Shown here in pieces: positions 12,331 through 41,854 of a DNA stretch of 49,012 nucleotides (position 1 is its first letter; each line of letters begins with the position of its first letter). The DNA is from Candidatus Bipolaricaulota bacterium (lineage in GTDB: Bacteria; Bipolaricaulota; Bipolaricaulia; M55B111), in the NCBI GenBank assembly GCA_021735185.1, contig JAIPHN010000001.1, forward strand, positions 1 through 49,012. The letters run 5' to 3'. The position numbers and the translations under genes were made by a program. The notes under the pieces are model-generated. The model was given only the letters and a program-made list of their open reading frames with translations, was not told where the DNA came from and made no database searches.

Positions 12331-14256
12331 TCACTTTTCTAGGTTTTTTATCTCGACTTTTTCTATTTTTTCCGGGGGATGAAAGTTCAGTATCCGTGAG
12401 TAAAAGAATAGTTCCGCCTCCAGGGAGCGCTCGATATTTTTCTCTTTTCTAAATCCGTGCTGTTCGTCTTCAAAGAGGAGATAGGCTGTGGGAACATTCC
12501 TGCCTGCAAGTGACTTATACATTGCTTTTGCCTGGTCAGGCGGCACCACTTCATCTTCACCACCCTGAAAGAATATCACCGGGGAAGTGATATCCTCAGA
12601 GTGTTTTATCGGAGATCTCTCTTCGTAGATATCCTCCGCTTCGGGATAAGGACCAATTAATCCATCCAGGTACCTGGATTCGAATTTATGCGTATCTTCC
12701 GAGAGCTTTACGGGGTCACTCACGCCGTAATAACTCGCCCCGGCACGGAACACGTCTTTAAAAGCCAGCGAGGCGAGGGTCGTATAACCACCGGCGCTAC
12801 CCCCTCTGACGGCCAGCCTGTCCCGATCCACCTTCCCAATTTCTGCAAGGTGCAGAGCACCTCTTGCACAGTCCTCTACATCGACTACACCCCATTCACC
12901 TTTCAACTCCTGTCTGTAATCTCTGCCAAATCCGGTGCTCCCGCGGTAGTTAACGTCAAGCACGGCAATTCCGCGGCTCGTCCAGTACTGGATTTCCTGA
13001 GACAACCCGTCAGAAGTCGACGCAGTCGGACCACCATGGCTTACCACGAGAAGTGGGGGTTTTTCCGACTCCGGCCCCCTGTACTCCTTATTATTTGGGG
13101 AGTAGTAGAAAGAATGTACTTTTTCTCCTTCTGATTCGAATTCAATCGTTTCGAGAACAGAAAAATACCCCTTATCCACCTCCGGCGAGAAAGATAGCTT
13201 GAGCGTATCCACTTTTCCCGTATCCCGCGAAAGCACTCTGATTCCGGGGGGATTGTCCGGGCTTCCTCCGATGAACCAGACTTCGTTCCCTTCAGCTTTA
13301 AGAGAAGATATTTGTGTATAGGGAAGGTCATAGGATTTAGAACTCCCGTCCTCCAGATCCTTCTCTCCGGAAAACCAGCGGCCGTTCTCCGAATAGGTAT
13401 AAACGAGCTTTCCCGGTGCCGGGAAATCGTAAGTGGATATCCCGAATTGCCATTGTGGCCTGCCAAATTCGGCCTTCCTTTCAATTATTCGCTTTCCCTC
13501 CTCCCCGTTCCAGCTATAGAGATTCCACCAGCCCGTTCTATCGGAAACGTAAAAAAGGTCACCTGATTTACTCCACTTCGGAATAATAACGGATTCAGAT
13601 TCGCCGCCCGCGATAACCCTCTGGTCTTTTAGATCACCTTTTTCATTTAACTCACCAACGTGAAGGCAGGTGCCGTCCCAGGGCATATTCGGATGGTCCC
13701 AGGTAACCCAGCAAATTTTGTCCCTCTCCTGGTTAATTCTCGGGGAAGCGTAGAAATCATGCCCTCTGGCAACAACTTCCTGGTGACCGTTATCGTCTAG
13801 AGGTATAGCTACGAGGTAGTTCTCAGGTTCTCCATCTCCAGTATGGTCTTCGCAAACCCCCAGAAGTCTGCCCCTTTCATCGTCCAGGACGTAGTCAGCG
13901 TAACGAAAACTGCCCTCGGGGGAAACCGGCCGGGGTTCTTTTCCTTCAGCCATCCTGTAAATTCTCTGATCGGCGAAATTGGAAAAATAAATGACCCCTT
14001 CACTAACCTCGTAGGACCCTCCGCCGTACTCGTGCACGCGGTTCCTCACGTTAAACCCGTCCGGCGTCAAATCAACTGGTTTTCCGCCTTTGTCTAACTT
14101 GACAATGATATTTCTCCCACCCTCGCCGGGACGCGTTTCTAGCCAGTAAAGCGATTCAGCTTCAGGTTGAATTTCAGCCAGTCCAACCCTTCCGGATGCA
14201 ACTTTTTCCGCCGTGATCGGCGTCTTCCAGGAACCGTATTCTTTTACTTCTTTCAA
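12331..14256 (-). CDS. S9 family serine peptidase (prolyl oligopeptidase / acylaminoacyl-peptidase type)
   Basis: N-terminal beta-propeller-like region and a C-terminal alpha/beta hydrolase domain with GGSAGGY (nucleophile Ser) and the ...EDEQHGF His region. The TTG start is preceded by GGGAGGGG. Confidence 0.88.
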   Translation of the reverse strand: MKEVKEYGSWKTPITAEKVASGRVGLAEIQPEAESLYWLETRPGEGGRNIIVKLDKGGKPVDLTPDGFNVRNRVHEYGGGSYEVSEGVIYFSNFADQRIYRMAEGKEPRPVSPEGSFRYADYVLDDERGRLLGVCEDHTGDGEPENYLVAIPLDDNGHQEVVARGHDFYASPRINQERDKICWVTWDHPNMPWDGTCLHVGELNEKGDLKDQRVIAGGESESVIIPKWSKSGDLFYVSDRTGWWNLYSWNGEEGKRIIERKAEFGRPQWQFGISTYDFPAPGKLVYTYSENGRWFSGEKDLEDGSSKSYDLPYTQISSLKAEGNEVWFIGGSPDNPPGIRVLSRDTGKVDTLKLSFSPEVDKGYFSVLETIEFESEGEKVHSFYYSPNNKEYRGPESEKPPLLVVSHGGPTASTSDGLSQEIQYWTSRGIAVLDVNYRGSTGFGRDYRQELKGEWGVVDVEDCARGALHLAEIGKVDRDRLAVRGGSAGGYTTLASLAFKDVFRAGASYYGVSDPVKLSEDTHKFESRYLDGLIGPYPEAEDIYEERSPIKHSEDITSPVIFFQGGEDEVVPPDQAKAMYKSLAGRNVPTAYLLFEDEQHGFRKEKNIERSLEAELFFYSRILNFHPPEKIEKVEIKNLEK

Positions 14257-14353: not shown

Positions 14354-14371
14354 GCTGAATATTTAATAAAA

Positions 14372-14715
14372 CCTAAGTTGTGCGATTCTCTCACTCATGA
14401 CCAACTTCTAAATGGGTATTCAAGTTGAAATCACTGCCCTTTGAGAAATCTAATTGCTTCACCCAGTTGGTGACCTCTAAAATGTTTGTGCCAACTTGCT
14501 CTCTCGAAACTTTCAACCAGCACCCAGATGAGCTCCGGAACTTGGCTCTAGATTTTTTACTTCCCTGGAGTATAGGCTGCCAGGCTCGTTTAATGGTAGA
14601 TTATATTTCCAGGTTACTTTTCTCATCTGGGTGCTGGACCAAGTCTTGCTTGCAAAATAAAAATTATAAATACCACTGAACTTTCAGCTAACCTGTCCAA
14701 ACCGCTTAAATTAGG
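14372..14715 (+). mobile_element. MITE-like non-autonomous element, copy 1 (344 bp): arm A, invertible core, arm B
   Basis: Aligns end to end with the reverse complement of 41104..41448. Imperfect TIRs are CCTAAGTTGTGCGATT and CCTAATTTAAGCGGTT (12/16). The 5-bp direct repeat TAAAA is exact at 14367..14371 and 14716..14720. No ORF is conserved between copies. Confidence 0.8.
14517..14637. repeat. Core module of copy 1: perfect 16-bp inverted repeats (CCAGCACCCAGATGAG / CTCATCTGGGTGCTGG) flanking 89 bp
   Basis: IRL at 14517..14532 and IRR at 14622..14637, read directly. The 89-bp interior has the same plus-strand orientation as in copy 2, although the arms are reverse-complemented. Confidence 0.75.
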
Positions 14716-14828
14716 TAAAAGATTTTTTGATTAAAAAGCCCGATTTGTGATATTATAGAATAGTTAGATTTATTCCACTCAAATCATAACTGTTAAGTGA
14801 GAGCCAGACCGGGAAGGAGAAAACCTAT

Positions 14829-15599
14829 CTAGCTGCCTTTCGATCCTTCTCCCACTTCCGCTAATAACCCCACCGTTTCTTCGACGATAATTTTCATCTG
14901 TTTTTCTCGGCTGATCCCTGCCTTACCGTCGCCTGATTGAAAACCGTACCAGCCAAACTGGCTATGGTTACCGCCGGTTATTTCGACGAATTCCGTATCC
15001 GGCGGAAGTTGTTCCCGGGATCGAACGACTTTTGACTCATTTATTATTTCATCTCTTCCCCCGATAATACTTAAGACCTTCAGATCGGTAGAGAAACTTT
15101 CTCCTTTCTGGGGGTAAGAAGCCCAGAGCAGAAGCCCTTCAACGGAATAATCCGTTCGGACAACAAACCTGGCCGCCATTGCACCCCCCATAGAGTGGCC
15201 GCCAATAACCCAATCTTTTTCTTCGGAGTGGTTAGTAATGATTTCTCCCGCTTTTTTCCACCCGAGAACCGCCAGGTTCAGTGGGGCGCTAACCAGAAAT
15301 ACTTCATACCCTTCTTCGGCGATTTTCAGTGCCTCCGGGGCATAAGCCCGGACCGGAACTCTTGCCCCGGGATAGAATATCAAACCCACTTCGGGTTCCG
15401 AACCCCAAGGGGTATAATGGAACCCACTTACTCCTTCGGTATCGATCTCTTCAACCTCAACGGCCTCGCTACCCTGCAGGGCTTCCGAAGCTCGATTCAT
15501 GACCTCCTGCGGCCTTATAAACCACCCGGCTGTTCCCAAACCGGCCAGAAGCAGGGCTATAGCTACCGATATCAGAGGTAGTTTTAATTTTTTTCTCAT
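14829..15599 (-). CDS. Alpha/beta hydrolase, membrane-anchored or secreted
   Basis: N-terminal signal/anchor (KLKLPLISVAIALLLAGLGTAGW) and nucleophile elbow GGHSMGG. Confidence 0.8.
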   Translation of the reverse strand: MRKKLKLPLISVAIALLLAGLGTAGWFIRPQEVMNRASEALQGSEAVEVEEIDTEGVSGFHYTPWGSEPEVGLIFYPGARVPVRAYAPEALKIAEEGYEVFLVSAPLNLAVLGWKKAGEIITNHSEEKDWVIGGHSMGGAMAARFVVRTDYSVEGLLLWASYPQKGESFSTDLKVLSIIGGRDEIINESKVVRSREQLPPDTEFVEITGGNHSQFGWYGFQSGDGKAGISREKQMKIIVEETVGLLAEVGEGSKGS

Positions 15600-26370: not shown

Positions 26371-26384
26371 AGACAGGCCCGATA

Positions 26385-27329
26385 ATGTTTGGTTATATTT
26401 CCAGGAAATTTCTCGAGCTCATCCTGACACTACTGCTGGTCTCGCTAATTATTTTTCTCCTGCTGAGAGTTATTCCCGGTGATCCGGCGCAGCTGATTCT
26501 CGGGGTTAACGCCTCACCTGAAAGTCTGGCCGAATTACGGGGTGAACTGGGCCTGACAGAACCACTTACCGTACAATATTTATCCTGGTTAAAAAGTATC
26601 TTTTCCGGTAGCCTCGGCGATTCAATATTTTACGAGAAAAGCGTTCAAAGCCTGATTTTATCCCGGCTCCAGGTCACGCTACCACTGACGTTCCTTGCCA
26701 CGTTACTGTCCGTAACCATAGCTGTTCCTCTGGGCCTGCTGGCAGCAACTAATCATAAAAAAGCAACGGATTTTGGGGTAATAGCGTTTTCACAGCTGGG
26801 ATTATCCGTACCCGCTTTCTGGCTGGGAATTTTAGGCCTGCTGCTTTTCTCCCTAAAGCTAAACTTATTGCCGGCGGGTGGCTTTACTGAGTGGGGAACA
26901 AGTCCAGTTGCAGGATTAAAATCGCTCGTCCTCCCGGTACTGACGCTCACCGTGATTCAATCCGCCGCACTGACCCGAATGACCAGATCGTCCGCTCTCG
27001 ACGTGATGAGGGAGGACTACGTCTCAACAGCAAGGGGAAAAGGCCTGCCGGAAGTAAAGGTAATATACAAACACGTACTAACAAACGGTTTCATCTCGAT
27101 TTTAACTTTAATCGGGCTACAGGTCGGACAACTGCTGGCCGGGGCCGTAATAGTAGAAACCGTCTTCCATCTGCCTGGACTGGGGCGGTTACTGATCCTC
27201 GCCGTGGAACAACGAGACCTGCAGCTTGTACAATCCCTGGTAACTTTTCTTGTCGGCGCAATTATTTCTATTAACTTCCTCGTGGACATGACTTACGGAA
27301 TTCTTGACCCGAGAATCAGATTAAGATAA
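26385..27329 (+). CDS. ABC peptide-type transporter permease (DppB/OppB-like)
   Basis: The N-terminus MFGYISRKFLELILTLL is typical of DppB, and an EAA-loop region is present (VSTARGKGLPE). ATG 26385 lies just after the SBP stop at 26370. Confidence 0.9.
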   Translation: MFGYISRKFLELILTLLLVSLIIFLLLRVIPGDPAQLILGVNASPESLAELRGELGLTEPLTVQYLSWLKSIFSGSLGDSIFYEKSVQSLILSRLQVTLPLTFLATLLSVTIAVPLGLLAATNHKKATDFGVIAFSQLGLSVPAFWLGILGLLLFSLKLNLLPAGGFTEWGTSPVAGLKSLVLPVLTLTVIQSAALTRMTRSSALDVMREDYVSTARGKGLPEVKVIYKHVLTNGFISILTLIGLQVGQLLAGAVIVETVFHLPGLGRLLILAVEQRDLQLVQSLVTFLVGAIISINFLVDMTYGILDPRIRLR

Positions 27330-34036: not shown

Positions 34037-34482
34037 TCTGCCACCTCCTAAAGGAAACTTACTAATTTATCTAACTTTGCAGTCGGATCTAAAAAATTAA
34101 ATTTAAGTTGTCCAACTCTCTTAAGTGCGACCAACTTCTAACCCAAAGAGCAAACACAACCTCAGGCGACACTCACCAGGTTAATAAAAATACTCTTTAA
34201 CGTTTCATCAGGACTCAAATGACTCCCGGTGTTGTTAAAAAAGCTTAATTCCTCCTAACAAAGGAATCCAGCACGGGCTTCACCTGGTTCTTTCCGATCT
34301 CACTCGTTACAATCGGACATTCTTCCCCTTGAACGCTACCATCTGGAAAAATGATACTCATTACTCGGTTTCAACTGGACAGGTCAATCGTTCCAGTGCT
34401 TGTTAGTGGCAAAGTAACTCCTTTCACCTTAAAATACTGTCATGTAAGGGAAAAACAGTATTAACTGTAGTGAGGTATAGCT

Positions 34483-39522: not shown

Positions 39523-40968
39523 ATGAAAGATAAAACAATTTCTCTTTGGCAGGAGATCAAAAAAATTCTAAAAAAGGAGCTACCGGAGGCAAGTTTCGAG
39601 ACCTGGGTTGGTAACTTAGAGCTCATTGACCTCCAGGATGGCCGAATTGAACTGGCCGCTCCCAGTGGTTTTATCAAGAGGGGACTGGAGCAGCGCTATC
39701 TGGATCTGATAAATTCGAAAGTAAACGAGATAACTGGAGAACCAAAGGAGGTAGTAATTCAGGTGGCGGAGGCTTCAGGGTCCCCCGGGAACGGCAGTGA
39801 ACCGGCTCAAAATGGAGAACAGGACCTCCAACCTCCCCCAGTCAGTCAGGACGAAAACCCGTACAAAAATTCTACAGCACAGGCCTCCCAGGGGGTCAAT
39901 AGCTCGCCTCAAACGAACTCAAACAGCGGAAACAAGAACGGAAGCATAGCACTGAACAAGCAATACACTTTTAATACTTTCGTCAAAAGCAAGAGCAACC
40001 AATTGGCAAATGCTGCCAGCAGAGCAGTTGCGGAAGCCCCGGCTGATTCTTACAACCCGCTCTTTCTTTACTCCAAAGTAGGGCTTGGCAAAACCCACCT
40101 TCTTCACTCAATTGGAAACTACCTAACGCAACAGAACCCGGGAGGTGAGGTGGTCTACACTACCTCCGAAAGGTTTGCGATCGAAATGATCCAGGCCATA
40201 AGAGAAAACGAAACGGATCAGTTTAGAAAGAAATACAGGTCAGTCAAAGCCTTTCTTCTTGACGACGTCCAATTCCTAGAAAGCAAGGAAGGGACACAGG
40301 AAGAGCTTTTTCATACTTTCAACGAACTCTACGGGAATGGAAAACAAATCGTATTAACTTCCGATAGACCACCTCAGGAATTCTCCGACCTGCAGGATCG
40401 CCTCGTTTCACGCTTCCGCTGGGGTCTTGTAGCTGATATCCAGCCACCAAACTTCGAGACAAGAGTAGCAATATTACGAAAGAAAGCAACTCAGAAAGGC
40501 TTGAAAGTTGATGACGAAGTTCTGGAATTGATAGCTGCAAGAATCTCCACCAACGTACGAGCTCTCGAGGGGGCGTTAGTAAAGGCCGTGGCCCACGCGA
40601 ACCTTGCCGGGGGAAAGTTAAAGCTCGAAGAAGTAAAGAGTTTTCTCCCGAAAGAAGACGAAGAAGCCGGGGAATTAACGGTAACAGCTATAAAGGAAGC
40701 CGTTTCCGAAAATTATGATTTAACCCTGGAGAAAATCGAGGGCAAGAGTCGAAAGAAGGAGATAGCACGAGCACGCCATATAGCTATTTACCTGGCACGT
40801 GAGTTAACCGATAATTCCTTCCCCGCTCTAGGCAAGAAGTTCGGCGGGCGCGATCATAGTACGGTTATGCATTCTCATAAGAAAATTGACGGGATGATTG
40901 AGGATACGCCACTTCTTTACGAAGAGATAAAAGAGTTAAAAGAAGAGATCAAGTCGAACTACAGTTAA
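39523..40968 (+). CDS. dnaA: Chromosomal replication initiator protein DnaA
   Basis: Domain I (WQEIKKILKKELPEASFETWV), a ~70-aa low-complexity linker, AAA+ Walker A SKVGLGKTHL, Walker B LLDDVQFL, and a domain IV signature (ARHIAIYLARELTDNSFPALGKKFGGRDHSTVMHS). Confidence 0.95.
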   Translation: MKDKTISLWQEIKKILKKELPEASFETWVGNLELIDLQDGRIELAAPSGFIKRGLEQRYLDLINSKVNEITGEPKEVVIQVAEASGSPGNGSEPAQNGEQDLQPPPVSQDENPYKNSTAQASQGVNSSPQTNSNSGNKNGSIALNKQYTFNTFVKSKSNQLANAASRAVAEAPADSYNPLFLYSKVGLGKTHLLHSIGNYLTQQNPGGEVVYTTSERFAIEMIQAIRENETDQFRKKYRSVKAFLLDDVQFLESKEGTQEELFHTFNELYGNGKQIVLTSDRPPQEFSDLQDRLVSRFRWGLVADIQPPNFETRVAILRKKATQKGLKVDDEVLELIAARISTNVRALEGALVKAVAHANLAGGKLKLEEVKSFLPKEDEEAGELTVTAIKEAVSENYDLTLEKIEGKSRKKEIARARHIAIYLARELTDNSFPALGKKFGGRDHSTVMHSHKKIDGMIEDTPLLYEEIKELKEEIKSNYS

Positions 40969-41103
40969 ACAAAGAATAGGGCAACTTTGGACTCTCGAGA
41001 TTTATTTTTTCTTCAACTTTTATGCAAAACTTGCCTAAAACCCCTTTCGCAGATAATTTATGCAGAAAAATGATACTAAAAATCTTTTATGGATTAAGTT
41101 AAA

Positions 41104-41448
41104 CCTAATTTAAGGCGGTTTGGACAGGTTAGCTGAAAGTTCAGTGGTATTTACAATTTTTATTTTGCAAGCAAGACTTGGTCCATCACCCAGATGAGAT
41201 CCGGAACCTGGATCAAGAGTTTTTACTTCACTAGTGTATGGGCTGCCACGCTCGTTCAGTGGTAAATTATATTTCCAGGTAACTTTTCTCATCTGGGTGC
41301 TGGTTGAAAGTTTCGAGAAAGAAAGTTGGCCTGAACCTTTTAGAGGTCACCAACTGGGTGAAGTAATTAGATTTCTCAAAGGGTATATAGTTCATCTTAT
41401 ATATCCATTTAGAAGTTGGTCATGAGTGAGAGAATCGCACAACTTAGG
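41104..41448 (-). mobile_element. MITE-like element, copy 2 (345 bp), inverted relative to copy 1
   Basis: The reverse complement aligns with 14372..14715. The 5-bp direct repeat TTAAA is exact at 41099..41103 and 41449..41453. It sits 135 nt after the dnaA stop and about 160 nt upstream of the next gene. Confidence 0.8.
41183..41303. repeat. Core module of copy 2: inverted repeats CCATCACCCAGATGAG / CTCATCTGGGTGCTGG (15/16) flanking 89 bp
   Basis: IR at 41183..41198 and 41288..41303. The interior 41199..41287 is 75/89 identical to 14533..14621 when aligned plus to plus. Confidence 0.75.
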
Positions 41449-41611
41449 TTAAAATTATCACCAATTAGAAAGCAAAATTATTCATTTGAACCTTCCCTCC
41501 AGGCGCTATATGATTTCAGAGAATTTGGAGCTAAAACATAGTTCGACGGCATAGCATTATAGCTTTCATGTTAAATCGTCATCTTAACTCAGGAATTAAC
41601 AGGTGATAAAA

Positions 41612-41854
41612 ATGTCAAAAACCAGTGAGATAACCGTACCGGAACTCGGAAAGGTAGATGAGGTCAGTCTGGTCGAATGGAAAGTTTCAATCGGTGATGA
41701 GGTCCAGAAAGGCACTGAGGTCGCTGAAATCGAAACCATGAAATCAACGTTTTCCGTTGAAGCTAAGACCGCTGGAACCGTCGGAAAGATTCTCGTTGAA
41801 CAGGGGGAAAAGGCGGACGTAAGTCAACCACTGGCTATCGTGGAATCACGTTAA
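41612..41854 (+). CDS. Stand-alone lipoyl/biotinyl attachment domain protein (~80 aa)
   Basis: Overall E2 lipoyl-domain pattern (ITVPELGKVDEVSLVEWKVSIGDEVQKG..VAEIETMKSTFSVEA..G.V..I.V..G). I prefer ATG 41612, preceded by AGGTGA; the GTG at 41603 is possible. Confidence 0.7.
   Translation: MSKTSEITVPELGKVDEVSLVEWKVSIGDEVQKGTEVAEIETMKSTFSVEAKTAGTVGKILVEQGEKADVSQPLAIVESR

Follow-up and report, generated by a model that had tools for sequence, protein, structure and literature searches.

A miniature transposon with IS1380-like ends and a repeatedly inverted hairpin core in a Candidatus Bipolaricaulota genome

What kind of DNA accounts for two repeats of 344 and 345 bp in one contig, the ends of which are arranged as inverted repeats and the centres of which are not? 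The question is raised by a 49,012-nucleotide stretch of a Candidatus Bipolaricaulota genome (hereafter the window), which is contig C8 of the source assembly G000 (1.30 Mb in 112 contigs, 71% complete, 47.6% GC). The preliminary description of this DNA had recognised a MITE-like element in two copies, and both were located where it had placed them, at 14372-14715 on the plus strand and at 41104-41448 on the minus strand. Its account of the ends also held on re-examination. Arm A is 145 nt long and aligns gap-free between the two copies at 89.0% identity, arm B (78/79 nt, one indel) aligns at 97.5%, the terminal inverted repeats are imperfect (CCTAAGTTGTGCGATT versus CCTAATTTAAGCGGTT, 12/16 matching), no ORF is common to both copies, and exact 5-bp target-site duplications (TSDs) enclose each of them, namely TAAAA/TAAAA for copy 1 and, in element orientation, TTTAA/TTTAA for copy 2 (TTAAA on the plus strand). 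The further assertion that the copies align end to end is correct for the arms, which are inverted repeats, but not for the 121-nt core, which a repeat finder reported as a direct repeat (14517-14637 versus 41183-41303, 87.6% identity) and which is flipped between the copies.

Copy 1, on the plus strand, is preceded by its left TSD TAAAA (14367-14371), identical to 14716-14720 and represented by a single TAAAG in the empty site of a close congener, G005. Arm A (14372-14516, nhmmer E=2e-38) starts with the terminal inverted repeat CCTAAGTTGTGCGATT and is homologous to the left end of an IS1380-family insertion sequence (IS), upstream of the transposase gene. The hairpin core follows at 14517-14637 in the orientation termed F, with a perfect 16-bp inverted repeat (IR) at its two edges (CCAGCACCCAGATGAG, 14517-14532; CTCATCTGGGTGCTGG, 14622-14637), and is succeeded by arm B on the IS right-end side (14638-14715, terminus ...AACCGCTTAAATTAGG) and by the right TSD TAAAA (14716-14720). 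Copy 2, on the minus strand, comprises the TSD on the arm-B side (41099-41103, TTTAA in element orientation; G005 has a single TTTAA there, in an allele exactly as long as expected), the 79-nt arm B (41104-41182), the 121-nt core in the R orientation (41183-41303), flipped relative to its own arms when compared with copy 1, arm A (41304-41448) and the TSD on the arm-A side (41449-41453, again TTTAA in element orientation). The neighbours of copy 1 are a peptidase/esterase-like gene (12331-14256, minus strand), whose start faces it, and an alpha/beta-hydrolase-like gene (14829-15599, minus strand), whose end does; copy 2 has the end of dnaA (39523-40968, plus strand) on one side and, on the other, the start of a small gene with a lipoyl/biotinyl domain (41603-41854, plus strand). 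The spacer that holds copy 2 (40969-41602) lies directly after dnaA and is empty of the element in G005; no DnaA-box cluster was found in or near it, and hence no sign of a position within a replication origin. An Rfam scan of copy 1 recognised no RNA family and gave only a chance-level snoRNA match (E=0.63). A candidate decayed third arm-A terminus (ATTTAAGTTGTCCAACTCTCTTAAGTGCGACCAACTTCTAA) lies at 34094-34141 on the plus strand, sharing 73-74% identity with the arm-A ends of both window copies; it is probably the relic of a third copy's arm-A end, a weak assignment that falls below the threshold of the census profile.

The preliminary description had known the element from these two loci, and a search for more copies returned many, both in the assembly and in its relatives. 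BLAST and profile searches of the source assembly yielded 14 full copies on 11 contigs, together with two copies truncated by contig ends or decay, two core-less copies and several arm fragments; the tabulated copies are 340-348 bp long and have no ORF conserved between them. Of 14 congeners, 12 gave matches to the family, as did a sister genus; the other families of the class gave none except one weak match. Terminal positions 1-20 are about 91% conserved over 36 copies. Many of the matches in relatives sit at contig ends, and BLAST matches there to arm A only or arm B only, considered as ends of full-length IS, proved to belong to MITEs whose core is of another type or to copies interrupted by a contig end. 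When the flanks of 13 full copies were tabulated, a perfect 5-bp TSD was present in 8/13 and a 4/5 match in two more, whereas by chance all five bases agree at the spacing of the element with a probability of 0.0011 (0.11% of random positions in the assembly). The 5-bp duplications thus recur across copies, at targets that are AT-rich and almost all of the form TNNNA. Being small (below the 600 bp or so usual for MITEs), non-coding, bounded by terminal inverted repeats and 5-bp TSDs, dispersed among unrelated flanks and matched by empty sites in a relative, the window repeats are copies of a gene-less MITE, an ordinary kind of mobile DNA, as had been proposed.

Bacterial MITEs already on record include Nezha of cyanobacteria (with ISNpu3 as its partner), Correia, RUP and the MaeMITEs (PMC3184786). 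The present family resembles the Nezha-type MITEs in its small size, lack of coding capacity, terminal inverted repeats in common with an IS, flanking direct repeats and many copies, as well as in the occurrence of empty and filled sites between close species and in a partner IS that may sit in another genome; the type of evidence is the same as that by which Nezha and other bacterial MITEs have been defined (PMC3184786). It departs from them in that the parent would be an IS1380 element, in that the arms are long and non-complementary, and in that the centre is an invertible hairpin and the whole not a simple internally deleted IS. A literature search, which is no proof of novelty, found neither an IS1380-derived MITE nor a MITE with an invertible core described. 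As a MITE, therefore, the family is a member of a well-known kind, and what is less ordinary about it is the hairpin nested within, which is strongly conserved, co-varies and has been inverted repeatedly.

The core folds as a hairpin with a 16-bp stem (z = -2.7 for the whole element), and the conservation of that stem exceeds that of any other part: pairwise identity is 75% in arm A, 62% in arm B and 76% in the core interior, and reaches 99% in the two 16-nt IRs. Between subfamilies the IR passes through a series of variants, from ..CACCCAG.. to ..CACTCAG.., ..CACTTAG.. and ..CACTTAGTTGAG, with a 19-bp variant in addition, and every variant is perfectly matched on the opposite arm, i.e. the substitutions are fully compensated. 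The preserved property is the complementarity of the two IR arms. Such extreme conservation, together with the co-variation, suggests, speculatively, that propagating copies need an intact stem; its role might be to bring the unequal arms together or to offer a site for a structure-specific protein, which is likewise speculation. Should the stem be needed for mobility or be read by an enzyme, it would constitute a new component of miniature-transposon function; should it not, the family would provide a clear bacterial case of recurrent hairpin-loop inversion, able to mislead alignment-based classification of repeats.

Among the 36 copies with this core type, 18 cores are in the F and 18 in the R orientation. 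A maximum-likelihood tree of the arms only falls into two clades, both well supported, in which F cores outnumber R cores by 16 to 2 and R cores outnumber F cores by 16 to 2, respectively, and its well-supported branches force at least three changes of orientation, compared with about 12 expected for shuffled labels; orientation flips are on this account rare, not rapid. The two window copies are sisters in the same tree at 100/100 support, with opposite cores. Ten core columns that consistently separate the F cores of clade I from the R cores of clade II served as a diagnostic test: the odd F copies (window copy 1 and the copy on C19) carry the state of their own clade at seven of the ten columns and that of the other clade at two, and the import of a core from the other clade was rejected as the source of the odd orientations. 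A tree of the cores, in which F cores cluster at weak support (82/74), is itself weakly resolved. From these sequence comparisons, the diagnostic columns favour in-place inversion over the exchange of cores between copies. Orientation is inherited and changes rarely but repeatedly, unlike in fast phase variation.

The core is also encountered as a module apart from the arms. The MITE copy at C85:2409-2615 lacks it precisely, with the junction CTTTCAA running straight into CCAACTCT, as against CTTTCAA, the 121 nt, an A and then CCAAGTCT in filled copies. Two other copies, C64:6087-6282 and positions 797-1017 of L024 (G008:C105), are core-less through imprecise internal deletions of 152 and 122 nt, respectively, the latter copy with a perfect TGCAA TSD. 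Conversely, the core profile matched five modules free of MITE arms (C35:9490-9607, C93:5176-5295, C65:4830-4948, C105:6856-6977 and C59:3694-3813), which are about 120 nt long, are bounded by co-varying perfect 16-bp IRs (CCAGCACTCAAATGAG / CCAGCACTCAATTGAG) and lie inside a repeat family other than the MITE. When C35 is compared with C65, the flanks run in opposite directions and the modules in the same one, so here again the module is inverted with respect to its surroundings. In some MITE subfamilies (L013 and L014, G012:C52; L077, G004:C7), the core is of another type and an additional, incomplete left IR stands in tandem (CCAGCACyCAGATGT, then CCAGCACTTAG(A/T)TGAG), which suggests replacement or duplication of the module at the same position. 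As a separate observation, 32 nt of the window at 26383-26414 (TAATGTTTGGTTATATTTCCAGGAAATTTCTC) agree at 78% with a section of the core interior, which may be fortuitous or may mark the remains of a further module.

Such findings make it conceivable that the MITE harbours in its core a small hairpin element that moves on its own, of a REPIN-like or foldback-like type, and that the two orientations of this element arose through excision and re-insertion or through independent insertions into one and the same target. Modules of equal length that lack MITE arms but have co-varying CCAGCAC...GAG IRs, and that are flipped within another repeat family as well, the copy on C85 that is without the module to the base, and the different module types held at the same position by different subfamilies would all be expected of it. 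REPINs are doublets of REP sequences that form hairpins and are spread by RAYT transposases, and by analogy the core module resembles them in its two highly conserved IRs around some 90 nt of less conserved spacer, its hairpin and its dispersal in intergenic repeats. It is unlike them in that its 16-mer is not a REP-like palindrome and in that it is nested in other mobile elements. Moreover, a Y1/RAYT-type transposase (PF01797), the natural candidate for reading such hairpins, had no match in the source assembly and was matched in only 3/15 congeners, these assemblies being incomplete; the flanks of the modules present no consistent target sequence or TSD; and the core sequences track the phylogeny of the arms, with the own-clade state at 7/10 diagnostic sites, which fits in-place inversion better. 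An independently mobile hairpin is on balance unlikely, while remaining the strongest competitor to in-place inversion. A related reading, held just as tentatively, has the core as a separate, self-maintaining 'flip-flop' hairpin that occurs in at least two unrelated repeat families, keeps its arms complementary by co-variation and inverts in place; if true, it would represent an undescribed kind of small DNA hairpin, mobile or recombinogenic and possibly read by a hairpin- or cruciform-specific enzyme.

A second alternative takes the core for an inverton, in which a site-specific invertase acting at the 16-bp repeats would turn the segment back and forth at high frequency as a phase-variable switch, possibly of a neighbouring gene, so that each locus would occur in both states within the population. 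In its favour, both core orientations do exist, and the conservation of the IRs, at 99%, is above that of the termini at which a transposase would bind. Frequent switching is at odds with the strong clade-specificity of orientation (three changes on the 36-copy tree versus about 12 with shuffled labels), and an IR whose sequence co-varies between subfamilies does not agree with the fixed sequence expected of a protein site. Promoter and terminator scans of both window copies gave nothing above the shuffled expectation, a promoter-like signal in the core being no stronger than chance, and no dedicated recombinase was identified or found linked to the element. An inverton is accordingly an improbable account of the core. 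Occasional in-place inversion has an analogue in the non-coding DNA of plastids, in which small hairpin loops invert between short inverted repeats. There, as would be the case here, inversions are recurrent, homoplasious and in place, with no dedicated recombinase and with orientation mostly inherited; the present hairpin differs in lying inside a bacterial transposon family and in a stem conserved far beyond the neutral expectation.

As for the parentage of the element, the preliminary description had offered the IS1380 family only as a lead, and the termini, the TSD length, the composition of the targets and the homology of arm A all back it. According to the ISfinder family description, the ends of IS1380 elements, of which ISEcp1 is an example, begin with CC and are flanked by TSDs of 4-5 bp; the MITE and the IS clade described below both begin with CCTAA, and both have 5-bp TSDs. 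In a class-wide search for IS1380 transposases with the NCBIfam model NF033539 (cut-off 180 bits), an ORF of G144, a genome from another family of the same class, scored 231 bits. The corresponding IS is 1778 bp long and present in two copies, with the termini CCTAAGTTGAGCGATT (upstream of the transposase gene) and CCTAATCTGAGCGATT, and the MITE termini CCTAAGTTGTGCGATT (arm A) and CCTAATCTGAGCGGTT (arm B, copy C25) each agree with it at 15/16 positions. A profile HMM built from 13 arm-A sequences of the source assembly aligns to both G144 copies from their terminal base, over model positions 1 to about 103 (E=1.6e-4 and 2.5e-4 in 56 kb of loci that carry IS), and no match of this order was obtained elsewhere. 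A CAGTATACAAG motif recurs in arm A and the G144 IS at a comparable distance from the terminus, as does a CACCCAnTnGGTGA palindrome, and the match between arm B and the IS right end is restricted to the terminal 16-20 nt or so. At an E-value of about 1e-4, the arm-A similarity to the IS is modest, as judged from sequence comparison.

A scan of species-representative genomes with the G144 transposase returned 80 loci, many of them in complete Desulfosarcina or Desulfobacter-like genomes at about 50% identity. Nearly all of the 48 IR-flanked candidates at these loci have termini of the CCTAA..GAGCGATT type, and perfect 5-bp AT-rich TSDs flank 34/48; the full-length elements of this clade measure 1.72-1.78 kb and have the termini CCTAAnnTGAGCGATT. 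Full-length IS of the IS1380 family with matching termini and 5-bp TSDs, for which the preliminary description had proposed to look, hence exist. The MITE resembles them in its CC-starting termini (CCTAAnnTGAGCGATT versus CCTAAGTTGTGCGATT), in its 5-bp AT-rich TSDs and in the homology of arm A to the IS left end over about 103 nt; it differs in having no transposase gene, in its length (344 bp versus about 1.75 kb) and in its 121-nt hairpin module, which is absent from the IS copies examined. It was also observed that the loci L100-L175 form a coherent IS1380 clade with CCTAAnnTGAGCGATT termini and many copies per genome, at least nine loci being in Desulfosarcina alkanivorans PL12, and that related copies are labelled as Bacteroidota, Spirochaetota, Planctomycetia and others, so that the clade appears to have been widely transferred horizontally.

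The window had been described as free of any transposase gene, and this holds across the whole 71%-complete source assembly, in which neither the NF033539 search nor tblastn with seven IS1380 transposases found a match; multi-copy IS typically fail to assemble in metagenome-assembled genomes. Partial IS1380 copies do occur in three congeners (L026-L028), with termini CCTnAATCCGTGA that are loosely MITE-like and with flanks that are also TNNNA. They were rejected as the partner, since their termini differ and their transposases are about 24% identical to those of the G144 clade, and the G144/Desulfobacterales clade fits better. The best-matching IS come from another family of the same class and from other phyla, none from the genus of the source organism. 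The absence of an IS1380 transposase from the assembly and the different termini of the congeners' own IS1380 copies leave some room for mobilisation by another transposase, e.g. of IS5/IS4-like or ISH3-like type, with a merely coincidental resemblance of the termini. That both MITE termini match one IS1380 clade at 15/16, that this clade makes the same 5-bp AT-rich TSD in 34/48 copies, and that the arm-A profile follows the IS for some 103 nt, starting at its very first base, render such a coincidence very improbable. The MITE is very probably a non-autonomous element that derives from, and has been moved in trans by, an IS1380-family DDE transposase, and the core of which inverts in place.

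In the mechanism proposed on this footing, an IS1380-family DDE transposase would act in trans by binding the terminal inverted repeats of about 16-28 nt (CCTAAGTTGTGCGATT... and ...AACCGCTnAnATTAGG) and would insert the element into AT-rich 5-bp targets, mostly TNNNA, that are duplicated on insertion. Arm A would stem from the left end of the IS and arm B from its right end, the transposase gene having been lost. The core, extruded as a hairpin or cruciform, would occasionally invert in place when its 16-bp arms recombine or when replication switches template between them, and its orientation would be heritable within lineages, having changed at least three times, one of these between the window copies. 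The outcome for the field would be an IS1380-derived MITE family with elements of the partner type identified, whose insertion polymorphisms are usable as strain markers.

Direct evidence of insertion was sought in alleles without the element. Junctions with the element removed were built for 13 loci and searched across the genus, and the flanks were then aligned base by base. In the close congener G005, an uninterrupted single match spans the junction at 10/13 loci, both window loci included, in flanks that are 85-94% identical to those of the source assembly, so the check for empty sites that the preliminary description had put forward gave a positive result at both of its own loci. The G005 allele amounts to the filled one minus the element and one TSD copy, with a length within 1 bp of this at nine loci; at the locus of window copy 1, the length differs only by an 8-bp indel farther along the right flank. 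The targets present in single copy in G005 are TAAAG, TTTAA, TCAAA, TAACA, TTATT, TTGCA, TAAAT, TTAAC, TAGA and TACAA. Through these alleles, it can be seen that the apparent lack of a TSD at the copies on C20 and C19 reflects divergence of the TSD copies since insertion. In the copy at C26:23866-24248 (minus strand), the left terminus is tandemly duplicated over 38 nt, placing the start 38 nt farther out, and the perfect TSD TACAA is visible only against the G005 empty site.

Given the empty sites in G005, the insertions of the source genome at these loci postdate the split between the two species and are not the result of segmental duplication, and recent, repeated transposition is thereby documented in an uncultured lineage with small genomes. 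The notion that the copies and their 5-bp flanks belong to a longer duplicated segment can be set aside as practically impossible, because in every copy the similarity breaks off precisely at the termini, each copy lies among genes unrelated to those around the others, and G005 lacks exactly the element and one TSD copy, with the target once in clean empty sites, at 10/13 loci. Two individual loci may be mentioned besides. The full copy at C3:4340-4681 (minus strand) retains the IS-type TGAGCGATT within its left terminus CCTTGGTTGAGCGATTCTCTC, and its TSD TCTTA matches only when the right end is moved by one base. Last, a G005 contig (L055, G005:C6:1-501) ends exactly at the junction orthologous to the C41:31798 insertion of the source assembly; this site may thus be repeat-occupied in G005 too, and would then represent an older insertion shared by both species.
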